A DNA stretch of 64,000 nucleotides from Strigamia acuminata (lineage: Eukaryota): contig OX442314.1 in assembly GCA_949358305.1 (NCBI GenBank), positions 6,820,001 to 6,884,000 on the forward strand. Reading direction: 5' to 3'. Made by a program: the position numbers and the translations under genes. Position 1 is the stretch's first letter. Each line of letters opens with the position of its first letter. Shown piece after piece: positions 14,364-61,180 of this stretch. The notes under the pieces are model-generated. The model was not told where the DNA came from and did not search any database. It saw nothing but the letters and a program-made list of their open reading frames with translations.

Positions 14364-15322
14364 TGTGGTGATCTCAAAATATTCACCAACTTAGAAGATT
14401 AAATTAATTATCTTCTAATTAATTTGACTGTGGCACACGCCAAGTCAGATCATGTGACCGAGGGGAGAAATCCTCTCTAGGCACATATCACCCCAGGTTG
14501 TCCGGGGTGAAAACGGTTATTAGCCGTTATGGTGCAATATGGTGTAATAACCACTAGTTGCACCCATTTGAGCTAAGTGCGCAGGTTTTCTGCGCAATAT
14601 TGAAGCGTGCTGGGCTCGCGTCTTGGCTCAAATCGGGACTCTGAAAAATACAACAACAACCTCAACATCACTGCTTTTGCTCCTGAAAGAAAAGTATTGA
14701 TAGAGGACCGTTGTAACTCAGTTTCACCTGCTATCTTTGTGTATCAAACGCACAAAGCCAGCAATCCTGCTTGAATTAGCCGTCGCTAATTCCAGCAATC
14801 GAGAAGAGAAGATTCCCGACGATCGTGAACCATCGCCGTCGCTGTTGCGCGAACGACAGCCACCGCCATCGTACGAAAGCCGGACGCCTACAGCCGTCAA
14901 CCACCGCCGCCGAGCCGTCGCACGAGCCGTAGAAGGAGCCCACGAGAACCATCGTCTTCGACCATCGTTCGTGAGTTCGTAGAACGAAGACAATTTGCCT
15001 TCGCCTAACAACTTCAAGTTGTTTAAGCGCCATTTCTGACGCTTTGTAGCTTGTAACAGTCGTTGCAAGCCCTTCCTTTGTTTCATTGTTTCCCGCTCAT
15101 TTTATTCTGTGATATTCATAATCATAATTAGTATATATTGTAATTTATCGAATAAAACATTTGTGTGATTTTTATTACCATAATAAACTGTCTTTTTATT
15201 CCTATTTCCGTAAACTTAACCCTAGACAAGTTTCGGCCGCGATATAAGTCTTGTAAAGCATTCACCTGCGGTTTCTGCTTAATTTATTAGAAATTAAGTG
15301 GATAAAAACCCGGATCGCAGCA
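14364..15322 (+). repeat. 5' LTR (959 bp)
   Basis: TGTGGTGATC...GATCGCAGCA; no differences seen by eye from 31499-32457; AATAAA at ~15151 and ~15182. Confidence 0.95.
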
Positions 15323-15324
15323 CG

Positions 15325-15342
15325 TGGGGGCCCGTCCGGGAT
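15325..15342 (+). promoter_or_regulatory. Primer-binding site, tRNA-Pro
   Basis: TGGGGGCCCGTCCGGGAT, 2 nt after the LTR; one mismatch to the MLV-type tRNA-Pro PBS TGGGGGCTCGTCCGGGAT. Confidence 0.9.
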
Positions 15343-15436
15343 AGTCATTGTATAAATTTTGATAGTTTAAAATTTACCCGCCATTTTTATCTTGCTTATC
15401 TTTCTTCTCTATCCTTTCTTTGTCTTCATTTGAAAA

Positions 15437-18400
15437 ATGGCGACTCCAGGCGAAAAGAGACCGAGAGGCAGACCAGCGAAGAGACGAGTGGCGATCGATC
15501 TACCAGCCGTGGATCAAGAAGTGACTGAGTCACAAGAACTGTTTGAAACTATGGATCAAACAGCTAACTGTAACTCGGCACAGTTAATCGTGAATGAATT
15601 CACGCAAGCGTTGGAGCGACAACAGCCATCCCCGCCCAGCGGCCAGTTGGACTTAAAAAATCCAACTGGAAGTGGCCGTTCCAAGTCGCAAAACGATGAT
15701 TTGAATTTACGAATTCAATCATCAAGTGCGGAGCACTCGCTGAATTCATCACCGGTTCAAGGTGCAGCACAACAAGATTCTGAGAACTCCAATATGGAAG
15801 TTTCTCATTCTCCCGTGCGTGTTACCATGATGGACGCACTCCGTGAGCAAGCTAGGCTCGAGGGAGTAAAAGTCACTAGCGAAATGACTGTGGAACAAAT
15901 CCACAAAGCTATGGTTCGCAAACAAAGCCAAAAAGACGTTGAAATCGTCAGAACAAGCTTGCAAGCAGAGTTCGAGCGAATGCGTGCAGAAATGCATCAG
16001 CAAAATGCCGAACTAAAACAACAACGTGCGAATGACCATGTTAAGTTGTTACAATTAGAACAGGAAAAAGCTTCCTGGCTAATTACTGACGAAGAGCAAC
16101 AACAAAGGCTCGAGCAACTAAATCAAGCCCAAAAAGATTTAGAAATTGCTAATGAAAATTTGAGATTGGCCAACGCAAATTTGCGAGAAGCCAACACAAA
16201 TTTAATGACTGCCGAACTAACCGCCCCAGTTCGAGCGAGGGAAGTAATTCCCTCCACTTCTCGAAATTACGAGAATCATGCTGCAGAGCAAGCAGCAAGA
16301 GCTAAGAGATTAGCACAACGAGAAAACGAAGTATTTCTCGCTCGACAGCAGTCCGTAATTGATGCTGGTCTAGCCGCCAAAAGTCAAAGTACTGCAGAGC
16401 AGTTATTACGTGCCGACTTAGCTGCGCAAGCTCGTGAAAACGAAATTCTTCGCGCAGATCTATTGACGGTACAAGAGAACTTTGCAGTAGTAGTACAAAA
16501 AGTACAAGACGTTTGTGGCGAAGATAATTTTGCAAAGCCAGCCCCAGTTTTGCAAAAAGGTGCTTCCAAATCACCTGAGTTGATTGATTTAACATCAGCT
16601 AAACCAAAAGTCAGTCGACAATCAAGTTGGACTGACAGTGATGACTCACGCAGTAGTCGTGGAAGCCGTAACAGTCATCACAGTCGCAAAAAGCGAAAGC
16701 GACAACCAGACCCGACCGAATATCATTCCCCAAAAGTTACGCAAGATTCGGATCGATTCTTTAGCAATAGCGACCGATTAATCGGAATGCTAGAGAAAAA
16801 GAATAAAGAACGTGAGAAACCACACGATCGTGGACGGTCACACGATAATCCGCGAGAAGGCTCACCAAAACGAGATTGTCATAACGACATCCGTGATGGG
16901 CCGAGATACCGTGGAAATCCGCCAGGTGGTGACCCACCAGGTGGAGATAGTTCAGATGGACATGGAGGTGGCCACTCACGTGACCACAATTCGAATGGCA
17001 ATCGAAATGGAAGGGGACCACCAAATGGAGACCGTCGTCCGCCAGATGGCGACGATCCTCCGGACCCTGATCCGCCGCCAAATCCGAATCATGAATCTGC
17101 GTCAGATACAGATTCCTCACGTCCCAGTGTGAGAGGGCGATCTCGTCACAGAACACGTAGTAGAACTCAAAGACCCGATTTCTACACGAAAGATGAGATT
17201 GACCAGTTGTTGAGGCAAAATGCTCAACAACAGCGAAAAAGCAGAAGGGATAAAATTATTTTGCAAAAAATAAGTGAATTTACTTCTGATAAATGGACTC
17301 ATCAAACAACAGATGAAAAGTTCATTAGATGGGATCGAGTTATCCCACATGCCTATAATGGAAATTGGCAAGCAGGGTCAAACCTCTTGCTGGAAATATT
17401 CGAACTAGGCAAAGTTCACAGTTTTAGCTGTGAAGGTGCATTGGCCCATCTAGTACCAAGAATACTAGTTGGCGGTGTCAAGGAGTGGTTTCGCAGGAAA
17501 GACTTCACGAAGTGGGATGACTTCGTTAAACAATTTATGTTTAAATTTGGTGAATCGAGCGAAGACATCAAAACGCTCTGGAGATGTCTTAAGCAACGAA
17601 AAGGCGAAAGCTTACATTCGTACATGCTAAGAGCAGAGAATCTGCTTGGCAGAATGCCACATGCTGTTACTGATGCAACAGCAGATGATCAGTTTAGAGC
17701 TGGCCTCACAGAATATAGTAAAAATATTCTGATGATGTCGGACGCTCCCGACCCGGGGAAATTCTCCGAGTTAAACGAATTCATGGAAGTCAATCAATTG
17801 CGCATTGACGAAAAGTACAAAGCTTATCTTACAGAAGCCGAAAGGTCAGCGTACTTAAAGCGAGAGAAAAGACTCGCTGAGCAAAACAATGAAACCTTTA
17901 ATGGTTTGAAATTGTTGCAGCCACCTAGTTACGAAGACTTTCTAGACGAAGTGGATGAGAAGAGTTCGAAAAAAGAATCTTCCAAAAAGGACGTCAAAAA
18001 TCCTCATTCAGTCCCTAAGTTACACGCAAATATAACTGGAGCTGAAACTCCGTCGTCTGAAGCTGAAGAAGCTGAAGAGGAGGAGGAAACAGGAGACGAG
18101 ACGATGGCTTTATTGGCCAAAGCAGCGGCGTTGTTAGCAAAAAATAACCCCGTTGCGGGCAAATGGAAGCCAAGGATGAAACCAAAAAATGTTTCATTTG
18201 ACGCATCAAAGGTGAATACCGAAAGGAATTCAAAGTCACCTGCGGTGTCGCCAGAGCGCCGGTCTGACGCTCGTTCTCGTTCTGCCTCGCCAGCAGCAAC
18301 GAAAAAGAAATCGCCTGCCACTGATCCATGCAATTTATGCAAAAAATTAGGGCATTGGCAAAAAGACTGCCCTTCCTCTAAAAAGGACAAACCAGTGTCA

Positions 18401-18460
18401 ACAGCTGAGTTTGAAAAAGCAGTCAAGATCATAACTGACATGTTTCGAAAAAACTTGTAG
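15437..18460 (+). CDS. gag: Gag polyprotein (1007 aa)
   Basis: Coiled-coil-like N-terminus, capsid-like segment (W..F...F...FG...LKQRKGESLHSY), C-terminal CCHC knuckle CNLCKKLGHWQKDC. Confidence 0.92.
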   Translation: MATPGEKRPRGRPAKRRVAIDLPAVDQEVTESQELFETMDQTANCNSAQLIVNEFTQALERQQPSPPSGQLDLKNPTGSGRSKSQNDDLNLRIQSSSAEHSLNSSPVQGAAQQDSENSNMEVSHSPVRVTMMDALREQARLEGVKVTSEMTVEQIHKAMVRKQSQKDVEIVRTSLQAEFERMRAEMHQQNAELKQQRANDHVKLLQLEQEKASWLITDEEQQQRLEQLNQAQKDLEIANENLRLANANLREANTNLMTAELTAPVRAREVIPSTSRNYENHAAEQAARAKRLAQRENEVFLARQQSVIDAGLAAKSQSTAEQLLRADLAAQARENEILRADLLTVQENFAVVVQKVQDVCGEDNFAKPAPVLQKGASKSPELIDLTSAKPKVSRQSSWTDSDDSRSSRGSRNSHHSRKKRKRQPDPTEYHSPKVTQDSDRFFSNSDRLIGMLEKKNKEREKPHDRGRSHDNPREGSPKRDCHNDIRDGPRYRGNPPGGDPPGGDSSDGHGGGHSRDHNSNGNRNGRGPPNGDRRPPDGDDPPDPDPPPNPNHESASDTDSSRPSVRGRSRHRTRSRTQRPDFYTKDEIDQLLRQNAQQQRKSRRDKIILQKISEFTSDKWTHQTTDEKFIRWDRVIPHAYNGNWQAGSNLLLEIFELGKVHSFSCEGALAHLVPRILVGGVKEWFRRKDFTKWDDFVKQFMFKFGESSEDIKTLWRCLKQRKGESLHSYMLRAENLLGRMPHAVTDATADDQFRAGLTEYSKNILMMSDAPDPGKFSELNEFMEVNQLRIDEKYKAYLTEAERSAYLKREKRLAEQNNETFNGLKLLQPPSYEDFLDEVDEKSSKKESSKKDVKNPHSVPKLHANITGAETPSSEAEEAEEEEETGDETMALLAKAAALLAKNNPVAGKWKPRMKPKNVSFDASKVNTERNSKSPAVSPERRSDARSRSASPAATKKKSPATDPCNLCKKLGHWQKDCPSSKKDKPVSTAEFEKAVKIITDMFRKNL

Positions 18461-18494
18461 ACGCAGATCCATCAGGTCTAGTGGACGCTGCGTC
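18448..18494 (+). promoter_or_regulatory. -1 programmed ribosomal frameshift signal
   Basis: Slippery heptamer A_AAA_AAC in the gag frame just before the gag stop; downstream stem GACGCAG/CTGCGTC; pol is in the -1 frame and open from the heptamer. Confidence 0.85.
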
Positions 18495-21400
18495 ACCTCC
18501 GAAATCGGAATCAGAGAATGAAAATCTGAAGATAATGGAAGATGTTGGAGAAGTTATTGATGAATTAATTCGTCAAACAGAACTAAAAGAAAAAGGATCT
18601 CTTGATGTAAAAAAGGAGATTGTCGGCGAAACCCCGACTGAAGAAGACACTTCCAATATTCAAGATAAAGTCGAAGTTAAAGACGATAGACCAAGCTCAG
18701 TTCCAGAGACACCTGGAATTGAGGAATGCATTAAGTTATTTGCAACTACAACTCTTGATACCAATGAGTTATTAGATGAATTGCCTTTGGAGCCTCCAAT
18801 TACAATTCCTCATAAATTGCGCAAGTTTGAGTGCAAAGTGGCTGGAATACCAAACAGCCAAGACCTTCCGACGTTAAAGTTAGAAACGTTAAAAGGTGTA
18901 ATAACCGGAATGTTGGACTCAGGAGCAAATAAAAGCTTCCTAGCCACTTCAGTTATTAATCAATTAGGTCTAGAAAAATATCTACGACCTATCGGACCTG
19001 GTGTCAGAGTTACGACGGCAAGTGAAGAAGTCACTCCAGATGGAACCATCCATCTTTCATTTCGATGGACACATGGCACGTTACGTCATCCGTTCATCGT
19101 AATACCAAATAAGTATCCAATGGTACTATTGGGTTGCGATTTTATGAATAAATTAAAAATCCAACCTAATCCACAGACGATGTCTTGGAATTTCACGCAA
19201 CCTATGGATGCAGATTTACCCTACATTCCACAAGCGTTGCTGGATCGTTATTTGGAGAAAATAGAGGAACCCGATTCCTCATTTATGACCTTTGCAAAAG
19301 CTTACGCTGCAAGTGTAACTCAAGGCAAAATTGATGAAGAGAATTTCATCCAAAAGTTAGTCGAAGAAGCTAACTTAAATTTGGAGCAATCCAAATTATT
19401 AGAAAAGATGTTATCCAAACATAAAAGGATTATTTCTAAAGATCCAGGTAAAACACACCTGGTTAAGCACAAAATTGAGCTTGACACGGAGAAACCCATC
19501 CGTGTCCCCTTTAAGAGCATAAACCCTCAAAAAAGGGAAATAATCAGACAACTTTGTCAAGACATGATTGACAAAGGCGTAGTCGTCAAAGCTGAAGGCG
19601 ATTACGGAATGCGGCCAGTCCTAGTCATGCGACCAGGAAACGACCCACGCTTGTGCATTGATTTTCGCCCCATCAATACACATACTAAGTACAACCCACC
19701 TCAAATGCCAACAATTGAGGAAATTCTGCGAGAAATCGGAGAATTCGAATGGGTCAGTACTATAGATCTGACCAAGGGATATTGGCAGATAGAATTGCGA
19801 CCTGAAGACAGAGAAAAAACTGCCTTCTGGAGCCCAATGGGAAGACTAATGTTTTTAGTCATGCCTTTCGGATTAGTAAACGCACCAACTACCTTCCAAG
19901 AATTAATGGAAAAAGTTTTGGGTGACGTTTACAGAAAATTTGCATGGGCATATTTGGATGACATAATTATTGTATCCAAATCGTTCGAAGAACACATTAA
20001 ACATTTAGATATAGTGTTTAAAAAATTGGCAGAAGCTAATTTACATGCGCACCCTGGCAAGACGCATCTCTGTAGAAAGGAATTAATTTTTCTAGGCTAC
20101 AAAGTAGGAGTAGAAGGACTTGCAGTAGACCCTAAAAAAGTCGCTGCAATTACGCAATTTCCTGCTCCTACCAATCTTAAGGAATTACAAAGATTTCTAG
20201 GCATGGTGAATTTCTTTCACCGCCTAATCAAGAATTTGGCCACAGTGGCAGAACCACTAAGGCCACTCTTGAAGAAAGATGCGGAGTTCGATTGGGAACT
20301 GCATCATCAAGCAGCATTCGACGCAATAAAAGACCTGCTTACGAATGCTGAAACAATGAAGATGCCTGACTTGTACATGCCATTTATTGTTCATACTGAC
20401 GCCAGTAAACAAGGGTTGGGTGCAGCCCTTACACAAAAGAAAAATGTGGATGGCCAAGAAGTCGAAATGCCATGCGTGTATGCAAGCAGAAGCTTGCAAC
20501 CCGCTGAAAAGAATTATACTGTGACAGAATTAGAATGTCTCGCAGTAGTATGGGGATTACGCAAATTTCGCCCATACTTAGAGTACACTACATTCACTGT
20601 ACAAACGGATCACCAAGCACTTAGGTGGTTGATGTCGTTATCTGACCCGTCGGGCAGATTAGCTCGTTGGCAAATGGAGCTGATGGCGTATTCGTTCGAA
20701 ATACAATACGTCAAAGGTCCGCTAAATGTAATAGCAGACGCATTGTCACGTGCACCTGTCAGCGCACCTGACGAACCAGAAGACGATGGCGATAATGATG
20801 ATTTATTATCATATTGTCCATCTCCTTGCCGAAGTTGGCAAATGGGAAAATTGAACGAATTACCCAAGTCAATAATAGTTAATGACGACGATCAAGCATT
20901 AATTAATTTTTGTATTAACATGCATGATCCGTCAGGAACCCCTGACGTCGAATTAAGAGCTATGATGGCTAAAAAATTCGAGCTGCCAACAACAAATGTT
21001 TTAATTAAAGCATTTGCAGCTAAAATTGCGAAGCAATTAGAATGTGATCCTCCAACGAGAGATGACATTATTGCAGCGCAAAAAGCAGACGAATTTTGCC
21101 AACATATTCGCAATTACTTGCTAAACAAGCAATATCCAAGTTACATAGTAACTCGTCTTCAAAGAAGAAACTTTGAAAGACACGCGAGTACTTATCTCAT
21201 TGAAGAAGATATGCTACTCCATTATCATCCTACCTCCACCGATGAATTGGGAGAGGATGGTAGGGCACTTAAAGTTGTTGTGCCAAGAAAATTGATTTAT
21301 AAAATCATTTGGTTGATGCACGGACATCCACTGTCCGGCCACCCAGGCATTGCGAGGACAATGTACCGAACTCGAAGAGTTTATACCTGGAAAGGTATGA

Positions 21401-22707
21401 AACGTGATATTACACGTTTTATTCAACATTGTCAAGGATGTCAGGCATGTAAGCCGAGATCAAAGACCGAAATTGAAGGCGCTCAAATTGGACCATTTGG
21501 ACCATTTGACTGCCTCAGTGTGGATTTGTCTGGTCCCAAACCAAGAACCAGAAAAAACAATACCCACATTTGCGTCATCGTAGATGTCGCTACACATTGG
21601 CCCGAATTATTTCCAATGTGTAATCCAACGGCAATAAAAGTTGCCAACACAATTTATCACTTATCAATGACTTTCGGATTTCCGAGACAAATCATAAGTG
21701 ATAATGGACCACAATTTCGATCACAGGTCTATAAAGAATTTTGCAAAAAATTCGACATGTCGCGAACACCGACATCGATTTATCATCCACAAAGCAATCC
21801 TGTGGAGAGAACCAATCGAGATATTAAATATTTAGTTTCGATTTATTTAGATATTCATGACCAATGGGATGAGTATCTACGCGAATTTGCATTCAGTTTG
21901 AGAACAACTGTAACAAGAGGCAGAGATTATTCTCCTGCTTTCTTAAATTTTTTCCGAGAATTAAGAATTCCTTGGGATCCAAGAATTCCGGAAGGAATTT
22001 TAGTCATTGATCCAAAAAATCCGCATTTATATGTTCAGAAATTAGAAACAATAATTGCAGAGACGTATCAGCATATGATGTCTCACGTCTTAGATTTGAG
22101 ACGCCGTGTCGAAGCTGAAAAATCAGATAAGAAATTCGACAACTTCAGACAAAATGATTTAGTCTGGCGAGAGTCTCATATTCTCTCAAATGCCGCTAAA
22201 GGAATAGCAGCAGGCATTTCACCGAAAAGGAATGGGCCTTATGTAATTATCAAAAGGTTACAAGGAGGCGCCTTTCAACTTCGACGGCTGAGTGATAATA
22301 AAATTTATCCAGCTGTTCACGGCACTGAATTAATGCCGTACTTTCCCGTTTTCAACCAAGAAATTTGGCTGGAAGGGGAGGAAGTGGGTCAAAAAACAAA
22401 AAATATTGTTAATACCTTGGATGATGCTAAATTATCCAAAATTCCTGTCGAAAACACGGAATCGAGTAAAAAATCGAAACTCAAAAATAACGAAGTCGAT
22501 GAAATAAACCAGCGACTTGAAAATGTTTCTCTTGATGAAAATCTAGAAAAGGAAATGTTTTTAGAAAAAGAGAAAATTTCAAACAATGAAGTATATAACT
22601 CATCTGACATTGGAGACGATGCTGATGACAATCTAAACAAGTTGGATTGTACTTCGCGAAAGTCAAAGTACAACTTGAGATCTCGCGTTCCGCGAGCCAA
22701 GACATAG
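18481..22707 (+). CDS. pol: Pol: aspartic protease, reverse transcriptase, RNase H, integrase
   Basis: LDSGA protease, YLDD RT, TDAS RNase H, HHCC zinc motif, VDLSGP/SDNGPQF/VERTNR integrase triad, GPY motif; no stops or frameshifts. Confidence 0.97.
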   Translation: MDAASPPKSESENENLKIMEDVGEVIDELIRQTELKEKGSLDVKKEIVGETPTEEDTSNIQDKVEVKDDRPSSVPETPGIEECIKLFATTTLDTNELLDELPLEPPITIPHKLRKFECKVAGIPNSQDLPTLKLETLKGVITGMLDSGANKSFLATSVINQLGLEKYLRPIGPGVRVTTASEEVTPDGTIHLSFRWTHGTLRHPFIVIPNKYPMVLLGCDFMNKLKIQPNPQTMSWNFTQPMDADLPYIPQALLDRYLEKIEEPDSSFMTFAKAYAASVTQGKIDEENFIQKLVEEANLNLEQSKLLEKMLSKHKRIISKDPGKTHLVKHKIELDTEKPIRVPFKSINPQKREIIRQLCQDMIDKGVVVKAEGDYGMRPVLVMRPGNDPRLCIDFRPINTHTKYNPPQMPTIEEILREIGEFEWVSTIDLTKGYWQIELRPEDREKTAFWSPMGRLMFLVMPFGLVNAPTTFQELMEKVLGDVYRKFAWAYLDDIIIVSKSFEEHIKHLDIVFKKLAEANLHAHPGKTHLCRKELIFLGYKVGVEGLAVDPKKVAAITQFPAPTNLKELQRFLGMVNFFHRLIKNLATVAEPLRPLLKKDAEFDWELHHQAAFDAIKDLLTNAETMKMPDLYMPFIVHTDASKQGLGAALTQKKNVDGQEVEMPCVYASRSLQPAEKNYTVTELECLAVVWGLRKFRPYLEYTTFTVQTDHQALRWLMSLSDPSGRLARWQMELMAYSFEIQYVKGPLNVIADALSRAPVSAPDEPEDDGDNDDLLSYCPSPCRSWQMGKLNELPKSIIVNDDDQALINFCINMHDPSGTPDVELRAMMAKKFELPTTNVLIKAFAAKIAKQLECDPPTRDDIIAAQKADEFCQHIRNYLLNKQYPSYIVTRLQRRNFERHASTYLIEEDMLLHYHPTSTDELGEDGRALKVVVPRKLIYKIIWLMHGHPLSGHPGIARTMYRTRRVYTWKGMKRDITRFIQHCQGCQACKPRSKTEIEGAQIGPFGPFDCLSVDLSGPKPRTRKNNTHICVIVDVATHWPELFPMCNPTAIKVANTIYHLSMTFGFPRQIISDNGPQFRSQVYKEFCKKFDMSRTPTSIYHPQSNPVERTNRDIKYLVSIYLDIHDQWDEYLREFAFSLRTTVTRGRDYSPAFLNFFRELRIPWDPRIPEGILVIDPKNPHLYVQKLETIIAETYQHMMSHVLDLRRRVEAEKSDKKFDNFRQNDLVWRESHILSNAAKGIAAGISPKRNGPYVIIKRLQGGAFQLRRLSDNKIYPAVHGTELMPYFPVFNQEIWLEGEEVGQKTKNIVNTLDDAKLSKIPVENTESSKKSKLKNNEVDEINQRLENVSLDENLEKEMFLEKEKISNNEVYNSSDIGDDADDNLNKLDCTSRKSKYNLRSRVPRAKT

Positions 22708-22759
22708 TGTTGTCTTTCACCTTTTGGGTTTACCCAAAAGATCCGAGAAAGCAATCTCG

Positions 22760-22872
22760 TGACGTCATTCGTAGTACCCACTCGAATGACAACGTTAATC
22801 ATACGTTATAATTAGTGACGTCACAAAGCGTCTCTAATCCAAGTTCGTGTTTGCAATCAACGAACTTAGTCA
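22760..22872 (+). promoter_or_regulatory. Candidate internal promoter for ORF3
   Basis: Two perfect TGACGTCA (CRE) palindromes (22760-22767, 22816-22823) and Inr-like TTAGTC (22866-22871) about 30 nt upstream of ATG 22897. Confidence 0.45.
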
Positions 22873-22896
22873 CTTTTTCAAAAGTTTCGAGAGTGT

Positions 22897-25692
22897 ATGC
22901 ATCGCATCGCCTACGTTACGACCCGAATAGTTCGACAACCTGATCGTAAGTAATTTTTCTGTATGAAAAATTTGATAAAACATAAGATTTATGTATTATT
23001 TCTCTTTCAAGACGAAAGAATTTCCGAAATTACCGGAAAACGAAAGAGAATGGACGAGGAAGCGATCCAACTCCAGGCGGACGGAGAAATGCCCATGGAA
23101 GGGGCAAATGAAGACGTTCAATTGACGCTTCAACAACGGGTAAATTATTAGAATAAATTTTTACCAAGTGTTTAAGTCAGAAAAATTGAGTAATTTCACT
23201 TTTCCTGACTTCAAACACAAGCCGCTAAAAAATAAAAATGGCGGCTATAAAAGTCACGTGCTTCAAGCATGTGCGAAGGGAGTTGCCATGACAACCAACA
23301 TCCCTTAGTGACTCACAGCCACAAGCGCTAAGCTTAAAAAATATTTCAAATAAGAAATTATTTGTTTATTTTTAAATAAACTAATTTATTTATTTTTCTT
23401 CGAATACAGATCGAGAGGGATCGAGAAACGCCATTCGCGCTTCCCGATCACGTGCCGACTCAGCACCCGCTGATTTTTCGAGCGGCATTGCCCGAAAAAA
23501 TCAGAAGACTGAAGACGGCAAACAATACCTGGTGGAAGTTGCGCCACGACTTCAGCAGATCAGCGCTGCAAGGATTTGGTGCAAAAGGAAGATTCATCGA
23601 GCGCCTTCACGTGGACGGTGTCGACGAAATCGAGTGGACGCTCGACGAGAGCCCCCCAGGACCGCTTGCAGCAGAGTTGCTGCACAACCAGTGGCCAGTG
23701 ACGCCACGAGAGCGTCACGAGCGCAGAAGAGCGCTAAAGAGTACCGGAATTAATTACGGTGCTCTAACCCAATTGAGGAAGAACCTCAAGACGACACAAC
23801 GCGAAGTCGTTAAACGGTATCGCAAATCCGTTCGTGACGGGAACCCACAACTTCCCGTCACACAAACCGAGCTCCACCAGTTGGCGCTCGCCGGGTGTTT
23901 TAACGATTTTCCGGGATTTTTCCCGTCCAAAGCACTCAGAGCTGCCGCGGTGCAGCTTCGCGTCGACGAAAATCGACAACTGGCTCGAGAACACGAGGCA
24001 GAGGAGCAAGCGCGTTGCGCTCTCCCTTTTTATCAAGAAGATGAAATTCCGGCCCCAGCGGCCATCAATCCTCCGCCGCAAGACGAGGATTTGAGGGTGG
24101 GGCAACTCCCTCCGCCGGTTCCAGTCCGACCGATGTTCCGCGAATCAAGCCGCGATCGAGAGGAACGTCAGAAGCGATCACGCCCATATTCGACTGACGC
24201 GCAGCCATCACGCCCGCAGTCGCGACGAGGACGGACACCAGAGTCGTTTGGCTCGTCGTCTTCGCTGAGTTTTGAATCGGACTCCACAATTAAGTCCGCC
24301 CGAAGTAGCCGAACCGCCTCCACGTTCAAAGTGGACAACTCGGCTACTCCATACGCCATGAGACGTGTTGTCGGTGATATTTCTCCCGACTGTAGCGTGC
24401 CAGTACCTGGACATGCTAGCCGCTTGCCCGAACAAGGATATGTTTCCCGCTTGCCGGCTGGAGTTAGCAACCTGCAACTCCGGCCATTTTTTAGTGAGTC
24501 ATTCGGCCCACAATGGACCTGCTACGAGCAGCAACCCATTAGAGCACAGCAGGAAGTGCTCCAGAAGCTGGACGCATACCAAAGCGCCCAGATCGCCGAG
24601 TCGCAGAAGGACTGGCAGAGACTAGCTGAAAGGCTAGAAGTCTCCGACATCAATACCATTGATGATCCCCGTCTGATGGATTTTCAGCGTCAGCTAATTC
24701 CGGGGATGACTAGGGTGTTGTACCCTGGTGTTCTTCCTTCGCCAGGACAGGCGTTAGCGGCCATAACGTACCTTTGGACCGCGCCGATGGGCCTGTCGGA
24801 GAAGAAAGTCGAGCTGTGGTACCACCTCAGGCTCGACCCGCCTACGATCTTAGCCGAGCTAATAAAGCAAGTCGTAGCAAACGGTGAGACCGAAGAAGAG
24901 GCCGCCGTTCGGTTGCGAACCGAGTGGTCCTTTGCGAAGGCCACGGCGCGAATGACCGGAAGACCACCGCTTCCAGTTACAAGCGCCACAGCAGCTGCGT
25001 CACTGGCTGTTTTCCAGTCGGCCCAAGAGGGCGCTGGATGTTCATTTTGGCCAGAGAACGCCGGAAGTTCTCAAACTCCAGCCGGAGTTCAACGGGTAGT
25101 CGAAACCCGTCAGCTCCCCGGTGTGGGTCGAGCACCGGGACGAGGCGTCACACCCTCGTCAACCTCCGCACCTGCGTTGGTTTTCTTGGGCCCGCAGTGC
25201 CAGTTTGACGATGCCACGACGGAAGACTCACGTCCGCCGCCGCCGCCGCCAGCCAAGCCGGAGACGAAGGTCAAGCCGCTGAAAAAAGAGTCGGCTTTCA
25301 AGACCCTAATGCGCCTGTATCCGCACTTCTATTTGACGCCGGATACGCGAACACTGCTTAGCAACAACCACAAGTTGTCGAGGCAGGTGTTTATGTGGCT
25401 CGAGGACCACATCCGGGTGTTAAGCCCACCATCGGTGCTCCATGATCGACTCCTGAGAGCACGATTAGCGCCAGAGGATCCAATCGAGTTCGCGGCGCTA
25501 GGATTCTTCAACCGAGCGAACTCGGCAAGAATCATCCAGGTTTGGCTTCATGTCAACCCTGGAATGGTCTCCGGACCAAACGCAGGTCGCGACCTGTGTA
25601 CGGTTAACGAGCGGTCCAACCCGAGGGACGACACCACGGATATGATGCGCCCGTTGACGCCTGAGCGAACTCAGACCATGGACGAATCATAA
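22897..25692 (+). CDS. Spliced accessory gene (ORF3) of unknown function, ~819 aa; exons 22897-22945, 23012-23139, 23410-25692
   Basis: Introns GTAAGT...TTTCAAG (66 nt, phase 1) and GTAAAT...TACAG (270 nt, phase 0) join three GC-richer segments into one open frame that ends in the 746-aa ORF; no signal peptide or TM anchor evident. Confidence 0.75.
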
Positions 25693-25731
25693 ATTGGTTC
25701 GTTCATTTTCTCTCCATGTAAGATTCGTCTT

Positions 25732-25744
25732 AAATGGGGGGATG
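25732..25744 (+). promoter_or_regulatory. Polypurine tract
   Basis: AAATGGGGGGATG directly before the LTR TG; repeated at 31486-31498. Confidence 0.8.
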
Positions 25745-26434
25745 TGTGGTGATCTCAAAATATTCACCAACTTAGAAGATTAAATTAATTATCTTCTAAT
25801 TAATTTGACTGTGGCACACGCCAAGTCAGATCATGTGACCGAGGGGAGAAATCCTCTCTAGGCACATATCACCCCAGGTTGTCCGGGGTGAAAACGGTTA
25901 TTAGCCGTTATGGTGCAATATGGTGTAATAACCACTAGTTGCACCCATTTGAGCTAAGTGCGCAGGTTTTCTGCGCAATATTGAAGCGTGCTGGGCTCGC
26001 GTCTTGGCTCAAATCGGGACTCTGAAAAATACAACAACAACCTCAACATCACTGCTTTTGCTCCTGAAAGAAAAGTATTGATAGAGGACCGTTGTAACTC
26101 AGTTTCACCTGCTATCTTTGTGTATCAAACGCACAAAGCCAGCAATCCTGCTTGAATTAGCCGTCGCTAATTCCAGCAATCGAGAAGAGAAGATTCCCGA
26201 CGATCGTGAACCATCGCCGTCGCTGTTGCGCGAACGACAGCCACCGCCATCGTACGAAAGCCGGACGCCTACAGCCGTCAACCACCGCCGCCGAGCCGTC
26301 GCACGAGCCGTAGAAGGAGCCCACGAGAACCATCGTCTTCGACCATCGTTCGTGAGTTCGTAGAACGAAGACAATTTGCCTTCGCCTAACAACTTCAAGT
26401 TGTTTAAGCGCCATTTCTGACGCTTTGTAGCTTG
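25745..26434 (+). repeat. 3' LTR, truncated by the assembly gap
   Basis: Same sequence as the first 690 bp of the 5' LTR. Confidence 0.92.
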
Positions 26435-26634
26435 NNNNNNNNNNNNNNNNNNNNNNNNNNNNNNNNNNNNNNNNNNNNNNNNNNNNNNNNNNNNNNNNNN
26501 NNNNNNNNNNNNNNNNNNNNNNNNNNNNNNNNNNNNNNNNNNNNNNNNNNNNNNNNNNNNNNNNNNNNNNNNNNNNNNNNNNNNNNNNNNNNNNNNNNNN
26601 NNNNNNNNNNNNNNNNNNNNNNNNNNNNNNNNNN
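26435..26634. other. Assembly gap (200 N)
   Basis: Run of 200 N. Confidence 1.
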
Positions 26635-28461
26635 AATGACGACGATCAAGCATTAATTAATTTTTGTATTAACATGCATGATCCGTCAGGAACCCCTGAC
26701 GTCGAATTAAGAGCTATGATGGCTAAAAAATTCGAGCTGCCAACAACAAATGTTTTAATTAAAGCATTTGCAGCTAAAATTGCGAAGCAATTAGAATGTG
26801 ATCCTCCAACGAGAGATGACATTATTGCAGCGCAAAAAGCAGACGAATTTTGCCAACATATTCGCAATTACTTGCTAAACAAGCAATATCCAAGTTACAT
26901 AGTAACTCGTCTTCAAAGAAGAAACTTTGAAAGACACGCGAGTACTTATCTCATTGAAGAAGATATGCTACTCCATTATCATCCTACCTCCACCGATGAA
27001 TTGGGAGAGGATGGTAGGGCACTTAAAGTTGTTGTGCCAAGAAAATTGATTTATAAAATCATTTGGTTGATGCACGGACATCCACTGTCCGGCCACCCAG
27101 GCATTGCGAGGACAATGTACCGAACTCGAAGAGTTTATACCTGGAAAGGTATGAAACGTGATATTACACGTTTTATTCAACATTGTCAAGGATGTCAGGC
27201 ATGTAAGCCGAGATCAAAGACCGAAATTGAAGGCGCTCAAATTGGACCATTTGGACCATTTGACTGCCTCAGTGTGGATTTGTCTGGTCCCAAACCAAGA
27301 ACCAGAAAAAACAATACCCACATTTGCGTCATCGTAGATGTCGCTACACATTGGCCCGAATTATTTCCAATGTGTAATCCAACGGCAATAAAAGTTGCCA
27401 ACACAATTTATCACTTATCAATGACTTTCGGATTTCCGAGACAAATCATAAGTGATAATGGACCACAATTTCGATCACAGGTCTATAAAGAATTTTGCAA
27501 AAAATTCGACATGTCGCGAACACCGACATCGATTTATCATCCACAAAGCAATCCTGTGGAGAGAACCAATCGAGATATTAAATATTTAGTTTCGATTTAT
27601 TTAGATATTCATGACCAATGGGATGAGTATCTACGCGAATTTGCATTCAGTTTGAGAACAACTGTAACAAGAGGCAGAGATTATTCTCCTGCTTTCTTAA
27701 ATTTTTTCCGAGAATTAAGAATTCCTTGGGATCCAAGAATTCCGGAAGGAATTTTAGTCATTGATCCAAAAAATCCGCATTTATATGTTCAGAAATTAGA
27801 AACAATAATTGCAGAGACGTATCAGCATATGATGTCTCACGTCTTAGATTTGAGACGCCGTGTCGAAGCTGAAAAATCAGATAAGAAATTCGACAACTTC
27901 AGACAAAATGATTTAGTCTGGCGAGAGTCTCATATTCTCTCAAATGCCGCTAAAGGAATAGCAGCAGGCATTTCACCGAAAAGGAATGGGCCTTATGTAA
28001 TTATCAAAAGGTTACAAGGAGGCGCCTTTCAACTTCGACGGCTGAGTGATAATAAAATTTATCCAGCTGTTCACGGCACTGAATTAATGCCGTACTTTCC
28101 CGTTTTCAACCAAGAAATTTGGCTGGAAGGGGAGGAAGTGGGTCAAAAAACAAAAAATATTGTTAATACCTTGGATGATGCTAAATTATCCAAAATTCCT
28201 GTCGAAAACACGGAATCGAGTAAAAAATCGAAACTCAAAAATAACGAAGTCGATGAAATAAACCAGCGACTTGAAAATGTTTCTCTTGATGAAAATCTAG
28301 AAAAGGAAATGTTTTTAGAAAAAGAGAAAATTTCAAACAATGAAGTATATAACTCATCTGACATTGGAGACGATGCTGATGACAATCTAAACAAGTTGGA
28401 TTGTACTTCGCGAAAGTCAAAGTACAACTTGAGATCTCGCGTTCCGCGAGCCAAGACATAG
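26635..28461 (+). CDS. pol: Duplicate of pol 3' part (integrase)
   Basis: Same sequence as 20881-22707 (offset 5754). Confidence 0.85.
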   Translation, partial: NDDDQALINFCINMHDPSGTPDVELRAMMAKKFELPTTNVLIKAFAAKIAKQLECDPPTRDDIIAAQKADEFCQHIRNYLLNKQYPSYIVTRLQRRNFERHASTYLIEEDMLLHYHPTSTDELGEDGRALKVVVPRKLIYKIIWLMHGHPLSGHPGIARTMYRTRRVYTWKGMKRDITRFIQHCQGCQACKPRSKTEIEGAQIGPFGPFDCLSVDLSGPKPRTRKNNTHICVIVDVATHWPELFPMCNPTAIKVANTIYHLSMTFGFPRQIISDNGPQFRSQVYKEFCKKFDMSRTPTSIYHPQSNPVERTNRDIKYLVSIYLDIHDQWDEYLREFAFSLRTTVTRGRDYSPAFLNFFRELRIPWDPRIPEGILVIDPKNPHLYVQKLETIIAETYQHMMSHVLDLRRRVEAEKSDKKFDNFRQNDLVWRESHILSNAAKGIAAGISPKRNGPYVIIKRLQGGAFQLRRLSDNKIYPAVHGTELMPYFPVFNQEIWLEGEEVGQKTKNIVNTLDDAKLSKIPVENTESSKKSKLKNNEVDEINQRLENVSLDENLEKEMFLEKEKISNNEVYNSSDIGDDADDNLNKLDCTSRKSKYNLRSRVPRAKT

Positions 28462-28650
28462 TGTTGTCTTTCACCTTTTGGGTTTACCCAAAAGATCCGA
28501 GAAAGCAATCTCGTGACGTCATTCGTAGTACCCACTCGAATGACAACGTTAATCATACGTTATAATTAGTGACGTCACAAAGCGTCTCTAATCCAAGTTC
28601 GTGTTTGCAATCAACGAACTTAGTCACTTTTTCAAAAGTTTCGAGAGTGT

Positions 28651-31446
28651 ATGCATCGCATCGCCTACGTTACGACCCGAATAGTTCGACAACCTGATCG
28701 TAAGTAATTTTTCTGTATGAAAAATTTGATAAAACATAAGATTTATGTATTATTTCTCTTTCAAGACGAAAGAATTTCCGAAATTACCGGAAAACGAAAG
28801 AGAATGGACGAGGAAGCGATCCAACTCCAGGCGGACGGAGAAATGCCCATGGAAGGGGCAAATGAAGACGTTCAATTGACGCTTCAACAACGGGTAAATT
28901 ATTAGAATAAATTTTTACCAAGTGTTTAAGTCAGAAAAATTGAGTAATTTCACTTTTCCTGACTTCAAACACAAGCCGCTAAAAAATAAAAATGGCGGCT
29001 ATAAAAGTCACGTGCTTCAAGCATGTGCGAAGGGAGTTGCCATGACAACCAACATCCCTTAGTGACTCACAGCCACAAGCGCTAAGCTTAAAAAATATTT
29101 CAAATAAGAAATTATTTGTTTATTTTTAAATAAACTAATTTATTTATTTTTCTTCGAATACAGATCGAGAGGGATCGAGAAACGCCATTCGCGCTTCCCG
29201 ATCACGTGCCGACTCAGCACCCGCTGATTTTTCGAGCGGCATTGCCCGAAAAAATCAGAAGACTGAAGACGGCAAACAATACCTGGTGGAAGTTGCGCCA
29301 CGACTTCAGCAGATCAGCGCTGCAAGGATTTGGTGCAAAAGGAAGATTCATCGAGCGCCTTCACGTGGACGGTGTCGACGAAATCGAGTGGACGCTCGAC
29401 GAGAGCCCCCCAGGACCGCTTGCAGCAGAGTTGCTGCACAACCAGTGGCCAGTGACGCCACGAGAGCGTCACGAGCGCAGAAGAGCGCTAAAGAGTACCG
29501 GAATTAATTACGGTGCTCTAACCCAATTGAGGAAGAACCTCAAGACGACACAACGCGAAGTCGTTAAACGGTATCGCAAATCCGTTCGTGACGGGAACCC
29601 ACAACTTCCCGTCACACAAACCGAGCTCCACCAGTTGGCGCTCGCCGGGTGTTTTAACGATTTTCCGGGATTTTTCCCGTCCAAAGCACTCAGAGCTGCC
29701 GCGGTGCAGCTTCGCGTCGACGAAAATCGACAACTGGCTCGAGAACACGAGGCAGAGGAGCAAGCGCGTTGCGCTCTCCCTTTTTATCAAGAAGATGAAA
29801 TTCCGGCCCCAGCGGCCATCAATCCTCCGCCGCAAGACGAGGATTTGAGGGTGGGGCAACTCCCTCCGCCGGTTCCAGTCCGACCGATGTTCCGCGAATC
29901 AAGCCGCGATCGAGAGGAACGTCAGAAGCGATCACGCCCATATTCGACTGACGCGCAGCCATCACGCCCGCAGTCGCGACGAGGACGGACACCAGAGTCG
30001 TTTGGCTCGTCGTCTTCGCTGAGTTTTGAATCGGACTCCACAATTAAGTCCGCCCGAAGTAGCCGAACCGCCTCCACGTTCAAAGTGGACAACTCGGCTA
30101 CTCCATACGCCATGAGACGTGTTGTCGGTGATATTTCTCCCGACTGTAGCGTGCCAGTACCTGGACATGCTAGCCGCTTGCCCGAACAAGGATATGTTTC
30201 CCGCTTGCCGGCTGGAGTTAGCAACCTGCAACTCCGGCCATTTTTTAGTGAGTCATTCGGCCCACAATGGACCTGCTACGAGCAGCAACCCATTAGAGCA
30301 CAGCAGGAAGTGCTCCAGAAGCTGGACGCATACCAAAGCGCCCAGATCGCCGAGTCGCAGAAGGACTGGCAGAGACTAGCTGAAAGGCTAGAAGTCTCCG
30401 ACATCAATACCATTGATGATCCCCGTCTGATGGATTTTCAGCGTCAGCTAATTCCGGGGATGACTAGGGTGTTGTACCCTGGTGTTCTTCCTTCGCCAGG
30501 ACAGGCGTTAGCGGCCATAACGTACCTTTGGACCGCGCCGATGGGCCTGTCGGAGAAGAAAGTCGAGCTGTGGTACCACCTCAGGCTCGACCCGCCTACG
30601 ATCTTAGCCGAGCTAATAAAGCAAGTCGTAGCAAACGGTGAGACCGAAGAAGAGGCCGCCGTTCGGTTGCGAACCGAGTGGTCCTTTGCGAAGGCCACGG
30701 CGCGAATGACCGGAAGACCACCGCTTCCAGTTACAAGCGCCACAGCAGCTGCGTCACTGGCTGTTTTCCAGTCGGCCCAAGAGGGCGCTGGATGTTCATT
30801 TTGGCCAGAGAACGCCGGAAGTTCTCAAACTCCAGCCGGAGTTCAACGGGTAGTCGAAACCCGTCAGCTCCCCGGTGTGGGTCGAGCACCGGGACGAGGC
30901 GTCACACCCTCGTCAACCTCCGCACCTGCGTTGGTTTTCTTGGGCCCGCAGTGCCAGTTTGACGATGCCACGACGGAAGACTCACGTCCGCCGCCGCCGC
31001 CGCCAGCCAAGCCGGAGACGAAGGTCAAGCCGCTGAAAAAAGAGTCGGCTTTCAAGACCCTAATGCGCCTGTATCCGCACTTCTATTTGACGCCGGATAC
31101 GCGAACACTGCTTAGCAACAACCACAAGTTGTCGAGGCAGGTGTTTATGTGGCTCGAGGACCACATCCGGGTGTTAAGCCCACCATCGGTGCTCCATGAT
31201 CGACTCCTGAGAGCACGATTAGCGCCAGAGGATCCAATCGAGTTCGCGGCGCTAGGATTCTTCAACCGAGCGAACTCGGCAAGAATCATCCAGGTTTGGC
31301 TTCATGTCAACCCTGGAATGGTCTCCGGACCAAACGCAGGTCGCGACCTGTGTACGGTTAACGAGCGGTCCAACCCGAGGGACGACACCACGGATATGAT
31401 GCGCCCGTTGACGCCTGAGCGAACTCAGACCATGGACGAATCATAA
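28651..31446 (+). CDS. Duplicate of spliced ORF3; exons 28651-28699, 28766-28893, 29164-31446
   Basis: Same sequence as 22897-25692. Confidence 0.7.
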
Positions 31447-31498
31447 ATTGGTTCGTTCATTTTCTCTCCATGTAAGATTCGTCTTAAATGGGGGGATG

Positions 31499-32457
31499 TG
31501 TGGTGATCTCAAAATATTCACCAACTTAGAAGATTAAATTAATTATCTTCTAATTAATTTGACTGTGGCACACGCCAAGTCAGATCATGTGACCGAGGGG
31601 AGAAATCCTCTCTAGGCACATATCACCCCAGGTTGTCCGGGGTGAAAACGGTTATTAGCCGTTATGGTGCAATATGGTGTAATAACCACTAGTTGCACCC
31701 ATTTGAGCTAAGTGCGCAGGTTTTCTGCGCAATATTGAAGCGTGCTGGGCTCGCGTCTTGGCTCAAATCGGGACTCTGAAAAATACAACAACAACCTCAA
31801 CATCACTGCTTTTGCTCCTGAAAGAAAAGTATTGATAGAGGACCGTTGTAACTCAGTTTCACCTGCTATCTTTGTGTATCAAACGCACAAAGCCAGCAAT
31901 CCTGCTTGAATTAGCCGTCGCTAATTCCAGCAATCGAGAAGAGAAGATTCCCGACGATCGTGAACCATCGCCGTCGCTGTTGCGCGAACGACAGCCACCG
32001 CCATCGTACGAAAGCCGGACGCCTACAGCCGTCAACCACCGCCGCCGAGCCGTCGCACGAGCCGTAGAAGGAGCCCACGAGAACCATCGTCTTCGACCAT
32101 CGTTCGTGAGTTCGTAGAACGAAGACAATTTGCCTTCGCCTAACAACTTCAAGTTGTTTAAGCGCCATTTCTGACGCTTTGTAGCTTGTAACAGTCGTTG
32201 CAAGCCCTTCCTTTGTTTCATTGTTTCCCGCTCATTTTATTCTGTGATATTCATAATCATAATTAGTATATATTGTAATTTATCGAATAAAACATTTGTG
32301 TGATTTTTATTACCATAATAAACTGTCTTTTTATTCCTATTTCCGTAAACTTAACCCTAGACAAGTTTCGGCCGCGATATAAGTCTTGTAAAGCATTCAC
32401 CTGCGGTTTCTGCTTAATTTATTAGAAATTAAGTGGATAAAAACCCGGATCGCAGCA
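31499..32457 (+). repeat. 3' LTR (959 bp, complete)
   Basis: Matches the 5' LTR and is followed by the TSD ATGC. Confidence 0.95.
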
Positions 32458-48423: not shown

Positions 48424-48690
48424 TTTTAGGCAAAAAAAATTAATTTTAGGCCAAAAAAATTAATTTTAGGCAAAATAAAATTAATTTTAGGCCAAAAAAA
48501 AATAATTTTAGGCAAAAAAAATTAATTTTAGGCCATAAAAATTTAATTTTAGGCCAAAAAAAATTAATTTTAGGCCAAAAAAAATTAATTTTGGGCCAAA
48601 AAAAATTAATTTTAGGCCAAAAAAAATTAATTTTAGGCCAAAAAAAATTAATTTTAGGCCAAAAAAAATAATTTTAGGCAAAAAAAAATT
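48424..48690. repeat. ~21-bp minisatellite (TTAATTTTAGGCCAAAAAAAA)
   Basis: About 12 tandem copies. Confidence 0.9.
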
Positions 48691-60190: not shown

Positions 60191-61180
60191 TAAAAGTATC
60201 CCCTCAATGTTGAAAACTCTCCTGTTGCAAACCCACCCTACTCTAACTAAAACTCCAGTCTTTACAGTAAATATTATTTATTTCCTAATTAATTTGGCTT
60301 GGCACACGCCAAGTCAGATCATGTGACCAAGGGGAGAAATCTTCCCTAGGCACATATCACCTCAGGTTGGCTGGGGTGAAAACGGCGATTAGCCGTTATG
60401 GTGCAATAATCCTTTGTTGCACCAGTTTTAGCTAATTGCGCAGAATATCTGCGCAATATTGAAGCGTGCCGGGCTCGCGCCCTTGCTTCAATCAGGACTC
60501 TGAAATATACAACACAACCCTCAACATCACTGCTTTTTGCTCCTAAACAAAAGTATTGACAGAGGACCGTGTGACCAAGCTTACTTCGTGCAACACCGTA
60601 CGAAGCCAGCTATCCGTGTAAATCAACCGCCGTTGATTTCCGTATTCGAAGTAGAAGTTACCGCTCAACGTAAACCATCGCCTCGGCAAGTTTGCGAACA
60701 CCTGCCAACGCCATCGTACGCTGACCGGACGCCTACCCGACGTGAACCACCGCCTTGTGCCATCGTACGATCGAGTGGAAGAACTCGCGAGAACCATCGT
60801 CGCTCGCCCGATCATCGTTCGTGAGTTTAACGGAAGACTACCGTCTTCAAACAACTTCGTGTTGTTAAGCTCCATTTTAGTGCTTTTGGCTTGCAACAGT
60901 CATTGCAAGCATTTCCATTGTTCCTTCATAATATTTCGCAACTTGTCGCTTTTGTTATTATTGTATCATTATAACTAGTCATTTTTATTGTATTTTTAAC
61001 CGAATAAAAAGTGTGCATTTGAATTGATAAAACTGACTTTTATTTTCCATAAATTAACCCTAGATAATTTAAGGTTGCGATATAAGTCTCAAGTAGCATT
61101 CACCTGCGGTAACTCATGCTTTATTACTAGAATTTAGTGTGATACTATTTAATATTCAAGAGGAATAAGTAAATAATCAC

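Follow-up and report, generated by a model that had tools for sequence, protein, structure and literature searches.

A spliced orphan gene and extensive RNA folding, both predicted, in an env-less Ty3/Gypsy retrotransposon of Strigamia acuminata

The nuclear exit of intron-containing genomic RNA is understood in few LTR retrotransposons. Rev, Rex and Rec are small basic proteins with an arginine-rich RNA-binding motif. HTLV-1 Rex and HERV-K Rec are described as exporting RNA through CRM1 (PMC3185809, PMC10746203), and a mass of 14.7 kDa is given for Rec (PMC3185809). The closest precedent for the locus discussed here comes from a Gypsy/Ty3 retrotransposon, not from the retroviruses named as analogies in the preliminary description: CERV, the product of a spliced RNA of Cer1 in C. 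elegans, is reported to be required for export of the genomic RNA, and the extracts of that account name no RNA response element for it (PMC10309623). The element described below lies in a 64,000-nt window, which is the whole stretch of DNA that was analysed, and regulation of the element's own RNA is the most likely role of its third gene, ORF3.

The element, an LTR retrotransposon of the Ty3/Gypsy type without env, is young and intact (Table 1). The features of such elements are all present, namely LTRs with TG...CA ends, a primer-binding site that we take to be tRNA-Pro-like, a polypurine tract, a 4-bp target duplication (ATGC on both flanks) and a pol in which protease, RT, RNase H and integrase domains were identified in that order. 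The 5' LTR, with AATAAA at positions 15151 and 15182, and the complete 3' LTR (31499-32457) show 0 differences over 959 nt. A second copy of the pol 3' end, ORF3 and LTR (26635-32188) is an exact 5554-nt repeat adjoining the 200-N gap; duplication during assembly, across the gap, is its probable origin, and it lends no independent support. In its RT and RNase H regions pol is at most 46% identical to the 120 matches listed, and scans of viral contigs with pol gave no match. No homologue of gag residues 590-830 was found at E<=0.001 among 781 candidates. The hairpin of the predicted frameshift signal has a z of -2.47, with 1 of 200 shuffles equally good. An apparent depletion of splice donors in gag-pol (4 versus 15.4) disappeared under a codon-aware null (P 0.22-0.28).

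Table 1. Coordinates of the element's features and of a related lone LTR, numbered within the window.
Feature	Position	Strand	Description
5' LTR	14364..15322	+	959 nt, TG...CA ends, target-site duplication ATGC just before
Primer-binding site	15325..15342	+	TGG start, 2 bases beyond LTR
gag	15437..18460	+	1007 aa, one CCHC knuckle
pol	18439..22707	+	open frame of 1422 codons, PR-RT-RH-IN (Ty3/Gypsy order)
Predicted -1 frameshift signal	18448..18494	+	heptamer A AAA AAC, spacer 5 nt, hairpin
Post-pol spacer	22700..22880	+	hairpin array; candidate internal promoter
Predicted ORF3 exon 1	22897..22945	+	ATG, 16 codons + 1 nt
Predicted intron 1	22946..23011	+	66 nt, GT-AG
Predicted ORF3 exon 2	23012..23139	+	KRKR, three in-frame ATGs
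Predicted intron 2	23140..23409	+	270 nt, GT-AG, hairpin array
Intron 2 motif cluster	YY1-like 23235, TATA 23246, E-box 23255, X-box 23282, AP-1 23309	+	
ORF3 exon 3	23410..25692	+	760 codons, orphan
Polypurine tract	25736..25742	+	
Hairpin array, start of 3' LTR (probably U3)	25745..26020	+	10 helices
3' LTR (first copy)	25745..26434	+	interrupted by N gap 26435-26634 (200 N)
Repeat	26635..32457	+	exact repeat of 20881-26434, then remaining 3' LTR, then ATGC
Diverged lone LTR, same family	60285..61107	+	hairpin array kept

The splice phases of ORF3 match across its three exons, and the predicted product is 819 aa long. The first internal Met of exon 3 is only at residue 242, so that 241 codons would be startless unless spliced. 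Exon 2 has stops in both remaining frames, and the donor of intron 1 is the sole GTAAGT within 14364-25744. In three sequencing runs, position 23407 is C>T in most of the read depth, which was not taken as copy number; with this change the acceptor is still YAG but the frame is closed immediately 5' of exon 3, and the open frame therefore starts at the acceptor. Both introns are retained in the DNA copies seen: intron removal was found at 0 of the 15 joints among those listed, for both introns, and one 486-nt contig spanning intron 1 carries it intact. Of the multiply spliced basic protein envisaged in the preliminary description, the splicing is a prediction that fits the phase-matched exons and GT-AG introns; the predicted product is near neutral, with 108 K+R versus 100 D+E summed over the exons. 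Basic residues are merely clustered in places, and the K(K/R)x(K/R) motif occurs three times. No clear arginine-rich motif was found in ORF3, the densest stretch having 6 Arg per 17 residues, and a nuclear-export-signal pattern, of a kind for which chance matches are common, matches weakly and once, at exon-3 residue 348. With these properties and its length, the product does not conform to the Rev/Rex/Rec type. Phase-matched exons, NLS-type motifs and the lack of a membrane helix are points for a regulator; a size far above that of Rec and the lack of a clear arginine-rich motif are points against one.

The 3' LTR opens with a hairpin array at its first bases, 52 nt past the ORF3 stop, in which 64% of bases are predicted to be paired (folding energy -115.8 kcal/mol; z -8.58; none of 200 shuffles equally good), in agreement with the structured array already noted about 50 nt after the stop. 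Structured RNA of the Rev/Rex/Rec kind, in a 3' LTR or an intron, is thus present as a predicted fold. A search of Rfam with the array gave 0 matches at E<=1. The array of the diverged lone LTR has a z of -10.3, and the array is conserved above the rest of the LTR (190/219 versus 431/605 positions, p 2.6e-6). Between the two copies, 56 of 74 pairs are unchanged, 6 are kept by a one-sided change, 9 are broken and 3 are gapped, with two-sided compensatory changes in 0 of the 74; changed positions number 19 of 154 paired versus 10 of 65 unpaired (p 0.52). Covariation support for the array is thin. Among the stem variants listed from the runs, the pair is kept in 6 of 11 and broken in 5 of 11. The array also folds as single-stranded DNA (z -10.2). 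Pol III microRNA cassettes, which occur in foamy viruses and BLV, were ruled out, as the array stems are just 5-14 bp.

Similar structure is predicted elsewhere in the element. The post-pol spacer (z -6.3) and intron 2 (z -6.4) also fold, and the first stem of intron 2 pairs the 5' splice site, its donor bases being paired with p 0.91-0.97. In gag, pol and ORF3, the actual sequence outperforms its synonymous permutations in predicted folding in 75 of the 79 coding windows examined (mean z -2.27). Control Copia and BEL elements gave a mean z of -0.11 over 41 windows (p 5e-12 against the element), another Gypsy pol within the 64-kb window gave -0.21 (20 windows), and the pol frames of two Gypsy elements from metagenomes gave -0.26 and +0.12 (20 and 22 windows). 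An RT scan of the metagenome had found 4 short loci of 34-39% identity, which served solely as folding controls. The coding windows fold better as the sense strand (-2.27 versus -1.70, p 0.0014), and the same bias is present in all three noncoding arrays (U3, intron 2 and spacer). The U3 array, being one of three on a genome folded from end to end, is therefore not singled out as a response element. The folding of the coding regions suggests selective pressure, whether from packaging, from the control of splicing or from the need to evade silencing by small RNAs; among the best-ranked literature matches listed, no such pressure was found described for retrotransposons.

We tentatively propose, as a possibility short of probable, that ORF3 regulates the element's own highly folded RNA much as CERV does, having evolved independently. 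A subgenomic RNA would start in the post-pol spacer and be spliced by default, so that ORF3 would be made first. The protein would enter the nucleus via its KRKR-type signals and bind hairpin arrays there. Intron 2 would be no worse a target than U3 and perhaps a better one, since it is exclusive to unspliced RNA and the donor site of the intron lies within its first stem. Once bound, the protein would delay splicing or license the export of full-length, intron-keeping RNA, which would then be packaged, so that progeny retain the introns and the regulatory cluster of intron 2. Such a scheme would resemble those of Cer1 CERV, Rex and Rec while having an independent origin. As both introns lie 3' of the pol stop, splicing would spare gag-pol, and an export factor would be less needed than in HIV or Cer1.

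It is also possible, if rather doubtful, that the hairpins act without ORF3, in packaging, stability, CTE-like export by host factors or shelter from small RNAs, and that ORF3 does something separate, such as anti-silencing. The 75 folded coding windows, against controls of about 0, are consistent with this, and published accounts describe many retroviruses whose RNA leaves the nucleus by way of elements that host factors bind, no viral adaptor being involved (PMC10746203), and additional ORF3s with unrelated functions as common (PMC5408684, PMC7264820). However, hairpins working independently of ORF3 would leave unexplained both the retention of introns in a spliced, NLS-bearing gene and the stem over the splice donor.

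The motifs of the spacer and intron 2 bear on another proposal, that ORF3 is a Tas/Tax-like transcriptional activator made from a post-pol promoter and acting through palindromic DNA sites, whether of the spacer, of intron 2 or of the LTR, with intron 2 as an enhancer; we consider this unlikely. Two TGACGTCA palindromes (CRE sites) lie in the spacer, at 22760 and 22816, and are absent from the LTR; both are mostly paired within hairpins. Against a 20-motif panel the spacer showed no enrichment (p 0.23-0.60), and the internal promoter suggested earlier fares poorly on both counts, the spacer being itself a hairpin array. Intron 2 contains 6 of the 20 panel motifs, a number that none of 2000 shuffles and none of 168 background windows reached, although the panel was chosen after five of these motifs had been seen. 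The five, whose names (YY1-like, TATA, E-box, X-box, AP-1) are our presumptive assignments, fall inside 81 nt; among them, the X-box matches over 14 bp with a single mismatch. Several of the motifs are hairpin arms: the CRE sites, the E-box and the YY1-like site sit in stems, so that what had been described as a promoter and an intron rich in transcription-factor motifs can also be read as RNA structure. The TATA and AP-1 motifs are mostly unpaired, as is the X-box in its 3' half, and hairpins do not explain these. In addition, in two runs a diverged contig matches as far as position 22823, where the second CRE ends, and diverges beyond it, and a promoter between pol and ORF3 has a described precedent in Oikopleura Tor4b (PMC4402516). 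Against an activator, 0 of the 20 panel motifs occur in the U3 array, and no DNA-binding fold appeared among the fold matches of ORF3, which come from low-confidence models: the best were generic helical matches (Z 6.3 over 45 residues, rmsd 2.2, for the model of pLDDT 40; Z 6.8 over 78 residues, rmsd 2.9, for that of pLDDT 51), with a best E of 0.33 in the viral library. A likeness of residues ~470-485 to homeodomain helix 3, noted by eye, received no backing from these searches.

A passenger origin of ORF3, as DNA that was captured or is decaying and whose splice sites arose by chance, is very unlikely, although its orphan status and the pLDDT of 40 would fit. Homology queries consisted of exon 3; no match was found in Pfam, in metagenome contigs or in the ESM Atlas (whole exon and residues 375-540), and no homologue among PDB sequences, 7996 word-sharing candidates near in length or 1.84 billion representatives. 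Nothing is shared between ORF3 and Gag (best BLASTP E 3.0). Among the ORF3 variants listed, 5 of 11 are synonymous and 6 of 11 alter a residue, the latter in line with decay, but 0 of these 11 introduce a stop codon. Similarly, the 760 open codons and the phase-matched exons argue against a passenger, as do the gap-poor diverged copies: over exon 3, 11 of 15 pieces of at least 120 nt are gapless (among the pieces listed, 32 of 5807), whereas 3 of the 3 listed diverged pieces crossing out of intron 2 have 4-10 gaps.

In its layout, exon 3 alternates helical blocks with Pro/Ser/Arg-rich unstructured stretches. No membrane helix was found in it, the highest Kyte-Doolittle mean over 19 residues being 1.0; the first two exons are polar, and ORF3 has no signal peptide; with no hydrophobic helix and no Pfam match, the element is env-less, as first described. 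An Env-like or cell-to-cell transfer protein is scarcely credible, for in spite of the env position and env-style predicted splicing, ORF3 lacks these membrane features and any Pfam match, has 7 Cys, scattered, in exon 3, and carries NLS-type motifs.

The regulator that we prefer can be extended to the lineage, although we give the extension little credence: a deep-branching Ty3/Gypsy lineage would have its own version of the complex-retrovirus switch, with a post-pol promoter, an 819-aa spliced regulator, cognate arrays in the intron and U3, and synonymous sites chosen for end-to-end folding. If true, this full switch would give a retrotransposon with a Rev-like protein, a defined response RNA and ordered RNA structure throughout its genome. 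The element brings together a candidate protein unrelated to CERV and candidate RNA targets that are compact and well bounded, and whether elements other than retroviruses have converged on the Rev/Rex strategy can thereby be tested with small reporters.

Among known systems, the ORF3s described in bdelloids and plants are likewise non-env frames that follow pol and precede the 3' LTR, and copies retain them (PMC5408684, PMC7264820), but those are enzymes, env-like or antisense, whereas ORF3 here has no Pfam match and two predicted introns. Oikopleura Tor3b/4b are Gypsy-type elements with a third-gene promoter in pol or the post-pol spacer, as is a candidate here, although their third gene is described as a membrane Env made from unspliced RNA (PMC4402516). 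As with foamy virus Tas, an accessory gene lies by the 3' end with a possible second promoter (PMC3185809); unlike in foamy virus, env is absent, there is no homology, and promoter and DNA binding are candidates only. Like RxRE and RcRE, the structured RNA of the 3' LTR would be carried by every sense transcript, and, as with Rex and Rec, the accessory gene is doubly spliced, here by prediction (PMC3185809, PMC10746203); the array differs from those elements in being a string of short local hairpins, one of three such arrays, with no Rfam match. CERV was compared by its description; as to homology with its G and M domains and cysteine loop, the sequence searches with ORF3 gave no hit and the low-confidence models gave best Z values of 6.3 and 6.8. 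According to the extracts of that description, exons 1-3 of CERV are common to gag and its cysteine loop is essential, whereas all ORF3 exons lie past the pol stop, with none in common, and its cysteines are scattered; in addition, gag and pol are frameshifted here, unlike in Cer1 (PMC10309623). As in Cer1, however, the genomic RNA is predicted to retain usable splice sites, and ORF3 resembles CERV (517 aa) in being a large orphan protein of a multiply spliced LTR-retrotransposon RNA, as predicted, with a coding sequence at the env position and KRKR where CERV has a KRKK-type NLS (PMC10309623).

What is most surprising about the element, an env-less LTR retrotransposon, is that predicted folding along its whole length is combined with an orphan gene predicted to be spliced; the hairpin array of its LTR alone surprises less. 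The element belongs to Ty3/Gypsy and, by the features tested, is not of the env-bearing type. Its 5' LTR shows no difference from the complete 3' LTR (31499-32457), ATGC flanks the element at either end, and the heptamer A AAA AAC, accompanied by a hairpin, marks a predicted -1 frameshift. The lineage is remote, identity in the RT-RH region reaching no more than 46% with the best 120 of 580 matches. At 1007 aa, Gag is of unusual length; its middle is rich in Gly, Pro and Arg, and a homologue search with its presumed capsid region found none. An exact 5554-nt repeat of 20881-26434, at 26635-32188, adjoins a 200-N gap (from 26435) and is probably an assembly duplicate.

Coordinates of the element's genes and of neighbouring LTR elements
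Feature	Position	Strand	Remarks
5' LTR	14364-15322		959 nt, TG...CA ends
gag	15437-18460		with CCHC knuckle
pol	18439-22707		protease, RT, RNase H, integrase; Ty3/Gypsy order
ORF3 exon 1 (predicted)	22897-22945		49 nt
ORF3 exon 2 (predicted)	23012-23139		128 nt
ORF3 exon 3 (predicted)	23410-25692		760 codons
Copia pol and gag	50481-54352	-	
BEL/Pao	54973-60237	-	stop-broken
Lone LTR	~60285-61107		element's family
Another Gypsy pol	~61500-64000	-	

The element sits within a coding exon of a host gene of the DEG/ENaC (amiloride-sensitive channel) type, close to the first membrane helix, which marks the host as an animal; the protein context agrees across the flanks (14291-14363 and 32458-32580), and the right-hand flank gave a PF00858 match. 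Further PF00858 pieces at 34507-35321 and 41270-41758 indicate that DEG/ENaC genes form a tandem cluster here. Two adjacent perfect palindromes (32- and 35-nt arms) lie at 37242-37372, tandem arrays with 11-, 21- and 31-nt units at 46933-49363, and a nest of other LTR elements at 50184-64000.

ORF3, the third gene, lying after pol, had been proposed to be multiply spliced, and at the level of prediction this holds: three exons with fitting frames alternate with two GT-AG introns, 66 and 270 nt long, exons 1 and 2 together supply 59 codons, and the predicted product has 819 aa. Exon 2 is open in the required frame alone, and the first Met of exon 3 is at 242. As exon 2 itself offers ATGs in frame, intron 2 would be the essential one of the two. 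Run variants and contig ends give independent hints of this structure: C>T at 23407, found in most depth in three runs (15571/18422, 41716/41754 and 2304/2304), leaves a YAG at the acceptor and shuts the frame immediately before exon 3, and exact contig matches start at the intron-1 donor (22946) in one run. A roughly 50-nt intron of the host (approximately 35311-35359), identified by eye, shares its GTAAAT donor with ORF3 intron 2.

The three public runs compared contain 45-75% of sampled words, and none is recorded as RNA; one of them may have supplied the assembly. Since their contigs contain many element variants, 80 to 100% alike, the element is a multi-copy family with subfamilies. None of the 15 joints listed removes either intron, and a 486-nt contig crosses intron 1 without change; the DNA copies seen, from contigs that drop rare forms, retain both introns. 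In a small run under the same species label, X6, the LTR only is covered, by contigs about 87% alike.

Across gag, pol and ORF3 (15437-25689), 75 of 79 windows were predicted to be more stable than synonymous permutations (mean z -2.27), with which dinucleotide shuffles agree, and folding was biased to the sense strand in 49 (p 0.0014). Among 41 windows from Copia and BEL the mean z was -0.11 (p 5e-12 against the element); the BEL copy is decayed, which makes it a weaker control. Gypsy pol controls gave -0.21 (the second pol in the window), -0.26 and +0.12 (two metagenome frames), and two very short loci +0.43 and +0.70. The spacer after pol and intron 2 are also predicted hairpin arrays (z -6.33 and -6.43); the preliminary description had missed both, as well as the coding-region folding. 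Such element-wide folding, which five other sets of retrotransposon frames did not show, may be the element's most unusual property. Neither genome-wide folding in a retrotransposon nor a combination of parts like this one was reported among the matches listed in a literature search that covered few subscription journals.

The array noted about 50 nt after the ORF3 stop in the 3' LTR is borne out in prediction: it begins 52 nt past the stop and comprises 10 helices (25745-26020; z -8.58; 0/200 shuffles as good), and an Rfam search gave no match. The lone LTR also folds (predicted z -10.27) and is 87% identical to the array versus 71% to the remaining LTR (p 2.6e-6). In it, most of one loop has been replaced and the top of one hairpin is shorter, their stems being kept, and one helix re-forms in shifted register. 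Among 74 array pairs, 56 are the same, 6 changed on one side, 0 on both, 9 broken and 3 gapped; the rate of change is the same whether or not a position is paired (p 0.52), and strict covariation is poor. Predicted folding is stronger on the sense than the antisense strand, which favours RNA-level structure; the array is also predicted to fold as single-stranded DNA. Because AATAAA occurs near LTR positions 790 and 820, the array probably lies in U3 and would be transcribed from the 3' LTR alone; setting the U3 border requires RNA (PMC3601003, in part). [quoted passage not shown]

If the introns kept in DNA copies are real, then the RNA that is packaged evades splicing, or else progeny without introns disappear for want of the signals in intron 2. 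The simplest link of the parts, the likeliest of five readings at less than even odds, is that spliced RNA would yield a nuclear protein switching the element to unspliced RNA; intron 2 would be its natural target, because unspliced RNA alone contains it. Against this switch, both introns lie 3' of the pol stop, ORF3 is without Rev-like hallmarks, and folding is present everywhere in the element. The last point suits folding independent of ORF3, an account judged slightly less likely. Overall, the parts first described are partly confirmed and the regulatory interpretation proposed for them is partly supported.

Motifs presumably of YY1-like, TATA, E-box, X-box and AP-1 type occur in intron 2. 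Its description as rich in such motifs stands in that it contains 6 of 20 panel motifs (matched by 0/2000 shuffles and 0/168 background windows), the panel having been fixed after five were already seen. Pairing is predicted for the E-box and for the greater part of the YY1-like site. The TATA motif, AP-1 motif and X-box 3' half are predicted to be mostly unpaired, and the intron-2 donor to be paired (p 0.91-0.97). Motif content lends the post-pol promoter candidate no support: panel-motif enrichment was found neither in the spacer nor in the U3 array, and both CRE palindromes are predicted to be paired in hairpins. An ORF3 acting as DNA-level activator, which the intron-2 motifs would suit and the spacer would not, is doubtful. 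A second YY1-like motif lies in the 5' leader, on the minus strand (15378-15387). This leader contains 3 panel motifs (p 0.014) and, unlike the rest of the element, is predicted to lack folding (z +0.6).

With the exon-3 frame as query, no ORF3 homologues were found, including in Pfam and 1.84 billion representatives, and comparison with Gag found no relationship. ORF3 as passenger DNA is improbable: pieces of at least 120 nt inside exon 3 are gap-free in 11 of 15 listed, many about 15% divergent, and three listed diverged pieces crossing from intron 2 into exon 3 have 4-10 gaps each, the listing covering 32 of 5807 pieces; the 11 exon-3 variants listed (5 synonymous, 6 nonsynonymous, 0 stops) are weak as evidence. 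An Env-like transfer protein is highly improbable, a membrane helix having been looked for in ORF3 and not found. Expected to be basic, the protein is instead near neutral in charge; it carries three motifs of the form K(K/R)x(K/R), Arg numbers no more than 6 in any 17 residues, and a weak export-signal pattern occurs once. Single-sequence models were poor (pLDDT 40 and 51), suggesting helical blocks between unstructured stretches, and fold searches with them gave no informative match.

What was cited earlier on RxRE, on RcRE and on an internal promoter in foamy viruses agrees with PMC3185809 and PMC10746203. In Tor4b elements the spacer from pol to env contains a promoter (PMC4402516), and non-env ORF3s are widespread (abstracts of PMC5408684 and PMC7264820). 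The export-regulator concept is already known for retrotransposons, since genomic RNA export of the Gypsy/Ty3 element Cer1 requires CERV, its 517-aa spliced product (PMC10309623). By the tested features, the ORF3 system is a member neither of the Rev/Rex/Rec family nor of that of CERV, but it may work like either.
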